64,000 nucleotides of DNA from Waddliaceae bacterium (lineage in GTDB: Bacteria > Chlamydiota > Chlamydiia > Chlamydiales > SLFE01), in NCBI GenBank assembly GCA_963771045.1, contig CAVYRW010000004.1:1664001-1728000 (forward strand), written 5' to 3'. Of this stretch, positions 48,883 to 49,379 are shown in pieces. The notes under the pieces are model-generated. The model worked only from the letters and a program-made list of their open reading frames with translations, did not search any database and was not told the origin of the DNA. Position 1 is the stretch's first letter; each line of letters begins with the position of its first letter. A program made the translations under genes and the position numbers.

Positions 48883-48911
48883 TTGCACTCTAATTTTGTT
48901 TATGATATGAT
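48883..48911 (+). promoter_or_regulatory. Sigma70/sigma66-type promoter
   Basis: TTGCAC-17 bp-TATGAT, 9 nt upstream of the first Trp leader ATG. Confidence 0.6.
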
Positions 48912-48920
48912 TCAAATATC

Positions 48921-49043
48921 ATGAAACAAGAACGCTTATACAGCTTTTCAGTGGCTTTACCCCAAGTTGCGGGTACAGGCGTTTTTGCCTCAAAATCATT
49001 CTGGCAAGTTGCCTCTTATTGGACCTATCGCTGGTGGCGATAG
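48921..49043 (+). promoter_or_regulatory. Putative Trp-rich leader peptide 1 (40 aa uORF)
   Basis: MKQERLYSFSVALPQVAGTGVFASKSFWQVASYWTYRWWR*; hairpin CTATCGC-TGGTG-GCGATAG over the WW codons and stop. Confidence 0.75.
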
Positions 49044-49261
49044 TCTCCACTTAATTTTTTTTAAAAACTAATTATCAATAAGAGAGAAATTGTCAGATGA
49101 AATCAAATAGTAAGCATTCGGTGATCTATATTTCTGGAAAACGCAGCGCGGGCAAATGTCTGCAAGGCGCCCGATGGAGGCAACCGCTATTGGGGTTGTC
49201 GAAGCAGGGCAACAAAGCAGACCGAAGCCCCCGCAAGTTATCTAGGAATATAGATCACCAA

Positions 49262-49324
49262 ATGCTTACATCAAATAAAAGACTCCATATCAATTCCCCT
49301 TCCGCCTTCTATTGGTGGCTCTAG
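49262..49324 (+). promoter_or_regulatory. Putative Trp leader peptide 2 (20 aa, or 75 aa if started at 49097)
   Basis: MLTSNKRLHINSPSAFYWWL*; hairpin TGGTGGCT-CT-AGCCGCCA over WW and stop. Confidence 0.65.
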
Positions 49325-49379
49325 CCGCCATACCCTCATCTATTTTTATTCGCATTTATTAAATTTTAAGGAGTCAATC

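Follow-up and report, generated by a model that had tools for sequence, protein, structure and literature searches.

What does a leader with two short, tryptophan-ended upstream open reading frames (uORFs) do in front of an operon whose first three proteins contain no tryptophan? Tryptophan starvation is the best-known pressure that hosts exert on chlamydiae, and the question arises here in a Waddliaceae bacterium (assembly GCA_963771045.1; genome of 2.57 Mb, hereafter G000). The window analysed is the whole stretch of 64,000 nucleotides (nt) at positions 1664001-1728000 of contig 4 (CAVYRW010000004.1) of this genome, and positions given below without a contig are those of the window. Our answer, which we hold at a probability of roughly 0.6, is that the leader (48883-49379, plus strand) is a sensor of tryptophan starvation that acts by ribosome stalling and raises the expression of a tryptophan-free importer operon. 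No validated case of cis-acting tryptophan attenuation is known from the phylum, and the TrpL of Chlamydia trachomatis is doubted (PMC7755916).

Two tryptophan-ended uORFs and the helix between them

The ORF list leaves a gap of 505 nt between a 511-amino-acid (aa) orphan ORF (47339-48874) and the ORF of a 383-aa protein (49380-50531), and both uORFs lie in this gap on the plus strand. uORF1 (48921-49043) has 40 codons and ends FWQVASYWTYRWWR (...YRWWR, with the stop codon TAG at 49041-49043); its tryptophan codons at 49002-49004, 49020-49022 and 49032-49037 (starts 49002, 49020, 49032 and 49035) encode W28, W34, W38 and W39, which places four tryptophans among the final 13 codons. uORF2 (49097-49324) has 75 codons and ends FYWWL directly before its stop. 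This clustering in both uORFs compares with a tryptophan frequency of 1.2% in the genome. An earlier reading made from the letters of the stretch (the sequence-only reading) had described both endings and taken the uORFs for tandem tryptophan-sensing leader peptides; the endings were found again in the sequence and in the ORF list, and the interpretation gains from the preservation of both uORFs and their WW-stop hairpins in a second genome and from the tryptophan link of the downstream operon.

The rarity of the arrangement was evaluated in G000. Among 52 WW[x]-stop sites in all six frames, uORF1 and uORF2 form the sole true same-strand pair within 400 nt, with ~0.2 pairs expected, and this uniqueness alone is weak evidence against chance. 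Small ORFs with WW near the stop number 38, six of them outside long ORFs, and the two uORFs account for two of these six; the other four were dismissed, as they look like noise or lie inside insertion-sequence (IS)-like DNA. The strong argument against chance is the conservation of both uORFs in the same-genus genome G002, the one of 40 relatives in which a DNA search found the leader.

In G002, the counterpart of uORF1 has 44 codons and ends ...SWQLSSNRANRWWR, and that of uORF2 has 30 codons and ends ...SFYWWR, both thus finishing in WW-Arg-stop. Starts, stops, frames and WW ends are homologous between the two genomes, and the indels in the uORFs are multiples of three; in the alignment the uORF1 frame is preserved across a 12-nt indel, with a conserved C-terminal part and a diverged body, and W34 is not conserved. 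The RNA between the uORFs is much better conserved than the peptide bodies: the block ATCGCTGGTGGCGATAGTCTCC...T7-8...AGAGAGAAATTGTCA-N-ATG is near-invariant, whereas the bodies differ far more, and the start context of uORF2, AGAGAGAAATTGTCA-N-ATG, is identical in both genomes. The G002 leader leads directly into the gene of a substrate-binding protein, whereas in G000 the genes of the 383-aa protein and of a racemase-like protein stand between; this longer gene order is common to many families of the order. In metagenome scans, the two-block leader pattern gave 0 matches and the binding-protein query 593 pattern matches, none of which was confirmed; a sequencing-run search listed no RNA run, and the single run that it listed, a DNA soil metagenome, shared a small proportion of sequence words.

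RNA folding of the leader, proposed as a check by the sequence-only reading, recovered the two short stem-loops in which that reading had placed the tryptophan codons and stops. The core of the first, H1, is CTATCGCT-GGT-GGCGATAG (49025-49043, plus strand) and holds the TGGTGG codons and stop of uORF1; its extended form (49020-49049) adds outer pairs between 49020-49023 and 49046-49049. The second, H2, TGGTGGC-TCTA-GCCGCCA (49313-49330, plus strand), holds the WW codons and stop of uORF2, and its counterpart in G002 folds as GGTGGC-GATA-GCCGCT. The T-rich tracts that had been noticed after the stem-loops correspond to plus-strand runs at 49056-49063 (T8), downstream of H1, and 49340-49350, downstream of H2.

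The folding also yielded a long-range helix, P1 (49002-49095, plus strand), in which uORF1 codons W28-Y33 (49002-49019) pair with the Shine-Dalgarno sequence (SD) and AUG of uORF2 (49078-49095). P1 encloses H1 and the T8 run, starts at the conserved tryptophan codon W28, was found both as an inverted repeat and in the minimum free energy structure, and is present in G000 and G002. In the consensus fold of the two genomes, 29 of 29 pairs are kept, with two compensatory changes, one one-sided change and none broken. All 15 pairs of P1 are kept, one through a compensatory change from U-A to A-U; H1 likewise keeps all its pairs, with an outer pair changed from U-A to C-G (compensatory) and one A-U pair changed to G-U. 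The folding z-score of the whole region, -9, is owed largely to the hairpin of a mobile element described below.

The effect of P1 on the accessibility of uORF2 was estimated from opening costs. Opening the SD and AUG of uORF2 costs 11.1 kcal in G000 and 11.5 kcal in G002, against a mean of 5.7-5.9 kcal after shuffling of the upstream sequence (mononucleotide shuffles, 100 each), and the native cost was reached by 3/100 and 2/100 shuffles, respectively. When a ribosome, modelled as a simple block from -15 to +14 nt, was placed in G000 with its A-site at S27-Y33, the cost fell to 3-5 kcal (~4 at W28 itself), and it was 6 kcal with the A-site at W38; in G002, the A-site at W31 gave 7 kcal. At the stop codon of uORF1 the cost was 11 kcal in G000 and 9 kcal in G002. 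The best-placed tryptophan codon for opening P1 is W28 in G000 and W31 in G002. On these models, stalling in uORF1 is predicted to open uORF2 through P1, and a relay from uORF1 to uORF2 appears well supported.

From this we propose the following scheme. Scarcity of charged tRNA-Trp would cause ribosomes to stall at W28, W34, W38 and W39 of uORF1; a stalled ribosome would melt P1 and free the SD and AUG of uORF2, which would then be translated. uORF2 would serve as a second WW stall site and as a cover over a C-rich, G-poor stretch (49278-49379, plus strand; 28 C and 12 G in 102 nt) made up of the original uORF2 body and the spacer to the main gene. With C exceeding G by 16, this stretch ranks in the top 2.2% of genome windows; its counterpart in G002 has a C/G ratio of 1.8, and Rho is encoded in G000. 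Translation of uORF2 would finally keep the transcript occupied up to the unmasked ribosome-binding site of the operon, which is the least supported step, and might amount to protection from Rho-dependent termination, as in E. coli toiL-topAI. Stalling, the regulatory direction and the second-stage output are thus our inferences, and we regard the second stage, with or without Rho, as rather doubtful. The suggestion of the sequence-only reading that the output might be translational or of Rho type agrees with the lack of a canonical terminator and with a conserved helix that sequesters the uORF2 site and is opened by a modelled ribosome.

uORF2 of G000 also carries an insertion. It consists of a dispersed repeat of 160 nt (49110-49269), whose terminal inverted repeats read GTAAGCATT.../...AATGCTTAC, and a perfect target duplication of 8 bp, ATCAAATA, lies on either side of it (49102-49109 and 49270-49277). 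It is short, multi-copy and bounded by terminal inverted repeats and a target-site duplication, and was therefore classified as a miniature inverted-repeat transposable element (MITE). Its inverted arms are 33 nt long and 88% complementary. At least seven further near-full copies are present in G000 at 75-80% identity, plus fragments (other copies at C4:331307, 2165760, 1810293, 1407896 and 1419240, and at C2:187), a divergence that makes the family old, and a second copy carries a 7-of-8 duplication, AGAATA[A/G]G. Together with its duplication the MITE makes up 168 of the 228 nt of uORF2, so that the insertion is in frame, and uORF2 without it is a 19-codon ORF, MKSNKRLHINSPSAFYWWL. The start, frame, WW codons and stop of uORF2 were left intact, and the element is absent from the G002 leader. 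The MITE is open in one of six frames, namely that of uORF2; since three of six other copies are likewise open in the equivalent frame, this is weak evidence for selection to keep uORF2 open. Its GTAAGC ends and 8-bp duplication presumably recall IS66, and IS66-like ORFs of tnpA/B/C size were observed near C4:1245000-1248000. A minus-strand terminator-like hairpin was also seen inside the MITE (49217-49234), and copies of the element might block antisense transcription.

The tryptophan-linked operon and its counterparts in the order

The leader is followed on the plus strand by the gene of the 383-aa protein (49380-50531), the first gene of the operon, without tryptophan and without a Pfam match; by a gene of the Asp/Glu/hydantoin-racemase family (50518-51216; PF01177, E 2e-17; no tryptophan counted from MKRDK); and by the genes of a substrate-binding protein (51209-52078; PF04392, E 9e-35; no tryptophan), a permease (52075-52902; PF02653; one tryptophan) and an ATP-binding cassette (ABC) ATPase (52905-53519; PF00005; one tryptophan). 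The last three form an importer trio in one operon, whose genes overlap or abut. Tryptophan-free proteins make up 4.9%, 15% and 7.5% of the G000 ORFs that match the first three operon proteins in size. The relatives of the binding protein in the Protein Data Bank (PDB) are 6hni, 3lkv and 3lft (E 1e-11 to 2e-7, at low identity); the solved relatives are described as binders of aromatic amino acids, and 3lft holds bound tryptophan and was the template for TrpX of Streptococcus suis, whose TrpXYZ importer is induced under tryptophan limitation through a tryptophan T-box (PMC9382623). Judged from these sequence relationships, the importer is likely TrpXYZ-like, with tryptophan as its predicted substrate.

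The binding protein is present in 29 of 400 genomes of the order, and in nine of these 29 the unknown, racemase and binding-protein genes occur together. Nine other genomes encode orthologues of the 383-aa protein (383-450 aa), whose genes immediately precede those of the racemase and the binding protein. In all nine (9/9) the racemase and binding proteins are free of tryptophan, and the 383-aa orthologue is so in seven, with one tryptophan each in G109 and G188. A trpR gene (PF01371, E 1e-22 to 1e-25) lies directly upstream of the operon or of the binding-protein gene in G094, G125 and G296. No PF01371 protein was detected in G000, nor was TrpA (PF00290), which was detected in 14 of 14 control genomes. 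Together, the tryptophan-free composition, the adjacency of trpR and the auxotrophy point to induction at low tryptophan.

TGTAATG palindromes, TGTAATGTTATACCATTACA and TGTAATGTTGTAACGTTACA, were noticed before the operon in G094 (L051 ~4150-4223) and G386 (L052 ~3880-3920 oriented); the one in G094 stands just after the trpR gene, and the palindromes look like TrpR operators.

The 383-aa family shares the invariant residues QCH, PK and C262/H276/C278/C281 (C-x13-H-x-C-x2-C). For the AF2 model of the protein (pLDDT 78), Foldseek returned nothing from the PDB at E <= 0.001 (best E 0.3); the best fold matches, which are insignificant, include many OTU cysteine proteases, bacterial OTU deubiquitinases among them (VIA Z <= 4.6). 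The ESM Atlas gave no usable match for it.

Beyond the operon, G000 encodes five paralogues of the TLC nucleotide transporter and 7-8 of TyrP, a pattern matching that described for environmental chlamydiae (PMC3937554). One TLC paralogue (ATP/ADP or nucleotide transporter, PF03219) is located in the window at 41574-43010 on the minus strand, and the family is found in 0/14 control genomes. Elsewhere in G000, a 14-codon ORF, MDFNSLLWYILWAI (C4:621623-621667), ends ~30 nt before a gene of a TyrP-family permease (PF03222) and may be another tryptophan-codon leader.

Related arrangements occur elsewhere in the order. In G026, which belongs to another family, a paralogous PF04392 gene is preceded at a distance of ~65 nt by the stop of an ORF that ends ...FLRWWRSAR; the tryptophan-codon stretch of this ORF is at the same time the anti-SD: the opening cost is 12.5 kcal for the free RNA, 4 with a ribosome on WW and 10 with one at the stop, and the sequestration was reached by 1/100 shuffles. 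In seven of the nine other genomes with the 383-aa gene, the ORF directly upstream of it ends with an in-frame Trp-Arg no more than eight codons from the stop. Five of these seven ends are tails of PF00144 beta-lactamase-family genes beyond the Pfam domain (KGWRPRR, SSWR, TSWRLRPSF, SYWRP and SLWRNAGAN), the genes preceding the operon at L048, L050, L053, L056 and L058 (G033, G109, G290, G188 and G098); the remaining two are small ORFs ending SSWRFRAV and AIWRWRR. The tryptophan codon lies within a predicted GC hairpin in five of the seven genomes, and some of the seven have a neighbouring run of pyrimidines that pairs with the following SD. The cost of opening this SD decreased to 2 kcal in both G033 (from 6.6) and G098 (from 6.8), and was unchanged in G284. 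The two genomes without a Trp-Arg tail are those with trpR or the palindrome. A PF00144 tail of this kind, which overlaps a GC hairpin, could be a sensor fused to the end of a gene.

Objections and rival explanations

Several results weigh against the proposed relay. The promoter comes first. The sequence-only reading had placed a promoter, TTGCAC-17-TATGAT, 9 nt before uORF1, and such a putative sigma-70-like sequence is indeed there (48883-48911, plus strand; 17 nt separate TTGCAC, at 48883-48888, from TATGAT, at 48906-48911, and another 9 nt lie between TATGAT and the ATG at 48921); however, it matches the consensus at just 8 of 12 positions, was not called by the promoter scan and is not kept in the G002 alignment. 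Second, a single close relative carries the leader, so that the covariation rests on two sequences, and in G001, of the same genus (88% complete), neither the leader nor the binding-protein gene was found. Third, when the modelled ribosome sits right at the last WW of uORF1, P1 opens partly in G000 (from 11 to 6-9 kcal) and barely in G002 (from 11.5 to 8-11 kcal). Fourth, the SD of the main gene, AAGGAG (49368-49373), costs 4.6 kcal to open in G000 and 3.6 kcal in G002, values reached by 79/100 and 91/100 shuffles, and a modelled ribosome on the WW of uORF2 leaves access to it unchanged. Since this SD is not sequestered, a two-step cascade that is translational throughout was rejected; the translational mechanism accordingly stops short of the operon, which makes the second stage conjecture. 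Moreover, the rut-like composition is no more than a top-2% feature, the MITE places a hairpin with a 28-bp stem within uORF2 and may already have impaired the second stage in G000, and the five PF00144 Trp-Arg tails may be inherited protein sequence, shared by descent.

If used, the putative promoter would give a near-leaderless uORF1, and no purine-rich SD precedes either copy of this uORF. An inverted repeat of 13 nt, 92% complementary, was observed between 48894-48906, in the putative -10 region, and 49377-49389, at the start codon of the 383-aa gene. With its 5' arm located within the putative promoter or ahead of it, this pairing was discounted; it would be relevant only in transcripts that start further upstream, such as read-through from the 511-aa gene.

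Classical attenuation of the trpL type, in which H1, with CUUAAU8 after it, and H2 would terminate transcription intrinsically, stalling on WW would keep the hairpin from forming and permit read-through, and P1 would be incidental or a pause structure, accounts for the tryptophan codons and stops inside hairpins with T-runs after them in both species. It gains from G033, where the equivalent tryptophan hairpin, UUGGCGCC-CUC-GGCGCUAA, is directly followed by UUUCUUUUUUU in canonical terminator shape, and from the Rho-independent termination downstream of the WWW stall site of C. trachomatis (PMC7755916). Nevertheless, the terminator scan found no plus-strand terminator-like site within the leader (48883-49379), H2 included, and no alternative pairing that excludes H1 or H2, that is, no competing antiterminator, was found in it, which bears out the remark of the sequence-only reading that a classical terminator/antiterminator is not obvious. 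The U-runs begin 6-12 nt past the hairpins and do not adjoin them: the distance from extended H1 to T8 is 6 nt in G000 and at least 8 nt in G002, and just two of the first eight bases after H2 are T. A stall on WW would cover the hairpin no better than a ribosome standing at the stop codon does, and Rfam gave no match across 47000-51000, the tryptophan leader included, even at the permissive threshold of E <= 1. We consider this explanation unlikely.

A decaying relic is improbable in turn. It would hold that the MITE hairpin has disabled the second stage and that the operon is constitutive or served by another promoter, and a repeat in G002 could act likewise. This repeat, a 109-nt triple-hairpin insert between the uORF2 counterpart and the binding-protein gene (L013:1699-1807), is present in at least eight copies in G002 at 94-96% identity and in one copy in G000 (C4:1527270-1527374), and its first hairpin, CCCCTTCC-TTTA-GGGAGGGG-T5, is terminator-like; the two leaders have thus each taken up a separate repeat, and the one in G000 adds its long stem to uORF2. 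The three GC hairpins behind the uORF2 counterpart were considered as a terminator/antiterminator set and rejected, being this dispersed repeat. Decay is opposed by the intactness of P1, H1, H2, both WW pairs and both stops, and by an in-frame insertion whose element is open only in the frame of uORF2, weak as the latter point is in view of the open copies elsewhere.

There is a slight chance that the elements are untranslated palindromes, CTATCGC-N5-GCGATAG and TGGTGGC-N4-GCCGCCA, which would act as operators, RNA stability elements or terminators and in which the tryptophan codons would be a by-product of a UGGCG stem. Both hairpins are indeed perfect DNA palindromes, and in G000 and G002 three of the four uORF ends conserve TGGTGGCGATAG at the nucleotide level to a degree that the peptide alone would not demand. 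Yet the uORF starts, stops and frames are kept across indels of multiples of three, the MITE insertion left the frame open, and TGG is in frame as tryptophan near the stop in every case, namely the four uORF ends of G000 and G002, G026 and the seven genomes; as for an operator, trpR was not found in G000. Least probable of all is an arrest peptide of the TnaC/SpeFL type, whose nascent S-x-W-R or WWR would respond to free tryptophan inside the ribosomal tunnel by arresting the ribosome on the stop codon and so block Rho, with induction at high tryptophan: tryptophan codons 1-7 codons from the stop, a C-terminal motif (S-x-W-R, RWWR) conserved beside diverged N-termini, and Rho with a C-rich, G-poor tract downstream fit it, but induction at high tryptophan misfits an importer in a genome without detectable trpA, tryptophan-free operon proteins and the trpR gene upstream of the same operon in other lineages, and the arginine, always CGN within the hairpin stem, suggests a constraint at the RNA level.

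A starvation sensor based on ribosome stalling thus remains our preferred explanation, and a broader version of it can be offered tentatively, as a conjecture that we would rather bet against. Environmental chlamydiae might share a tryptophan 'ribulon', in which a Trp or Trp-Arg codon in a GC hairpin at the end of the preceding ORF, be it a very short uORF or a beta-lactamase-family gene with its C-terminal tail, would report the charging of tRNA-Trp; the present lineage would have duplicated the device into a relay, with uORF1 unmasking uORF2 and uORF2 shielding the transcript, as an ultrasensitive switch for a tryptophan-free salvage operon. This operon, of an OTU-like Cys hydrolase, a racemase and a TrpXYZ importer, could then be made without any tryptophan left.

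The locus offers a clean, conserved and testable leader, with two WW-ended uORFs and a linking RNA helix in a genome without detectable trpR or trpA. Should the relay work as predicted, the leader would represent a naturally occurring cascade of ribosome stalling in two steps, with the first sensor uORF controlling the second; chlamydial lineages would regulate the same operon either by TrpR or by tryptophan-codon leaders; and two uncharacterised genes paired across the order, those of the 383-aa Cys/His protein and its racemase-like neighbour, would acquire a tryptophan-linked role. The in-frame MITE, moreover, provides a natural experiment on the size of insertion that a sensory uORF can bear.

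Comparison with known systems

The logic of a leader ORF that senses codons is classical, and the unmasking of ribosome-binding sites by stalled ribosomes is already documented. In the open-access literature, the relevant papers found were confined to the predicted TrpL of Chlamydiaceae trp operons and the YtgCR WWW motif on one side and the T-box control of TrpXYZ on the other, and no tryptophan-codon leader before a chlamydial ABC importer and no relay from uORF to uORF was found described. We take the WW-Arg ending of the uORFs to resemble that of E. coli TrpL. As in trpL and the chlamydial TrpL, a short upstream ORF with tandem tryptophan codons near its end stands before tryptophan-supply genes, and the 40 codons of uORF1 are similar in length to predicted chlamydial TrpL peptides, 40 aa in C. 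felis (...SLWWAFAQ) and 59 aa in C. trachomatis (PMC3937554, PMC7755916), which are themselves unvalidated (PMC7755916). A WWW motif in YtgCR is likewise known from the Chlamydiaceae literature (PMC3937554, PMC7755916). Unlike trpL, the present leader has neither a terminator/antiterminator pair nor an Rfam match, has two uORFs in series with the tryptophan codons and stop inside the hairpin itself, and would regulate an importer operon instead of tryptophan biosynthesis.

The predicted opening of P1 is closer to two other systems. In the mycobacterial poly-Cys small ORFs (sORFs), which are leaderless, a stalled ribosome unmasks a ribosome-binding site (bioRxiv 10.1101/834739), and in toiL-topAI the translation of an unmasked downstream ORF prevents Rho termination (PMC12121999). 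As in both, stalling in an upstream ORF is proposed to break a duplex masking the ribosome-binding site that follows; the sensing ORF might lack a leader, as the poly-Cys sORFs do, and the protection from Rho proposed along uORF1, uORF2 and the operon follows the logic of toiL-topAI. The differences are that the site unmasked here would be that of a second sensory uORF, with the structural gene's own site unsequestered, and that the signal would be tryptophan codons, not Cys codons or antibiotics.

With the streptococcal TrpXYZ system the operon shares the combination of a PF04392 binding protein, a PF02653 permease and an ABC ATPase, and the induction of that system under tryptophan limitation in a tryptophan auxotroph is the logic expected here (PMC9382623). 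Leader ORFs would take the place of the T-box, for which no Rfam match was obtained, and two extra tryptophan-free genes, of the 383-aa and the racemase-like protein, precede the importer.

The serial arrangement has a counterpart in the mgtCBR leader of Salmonella, which contains two short ORFs, mgtM and mgtP, in series. These sense different signals, ATP and proline-tRNA, and act on transcription through alternative stem-loops. The leader described here resembles it in carrying two short sensory ORFs serially in one transcript leader, and differs from it in that both ORFs carry the same tryptophan signal.

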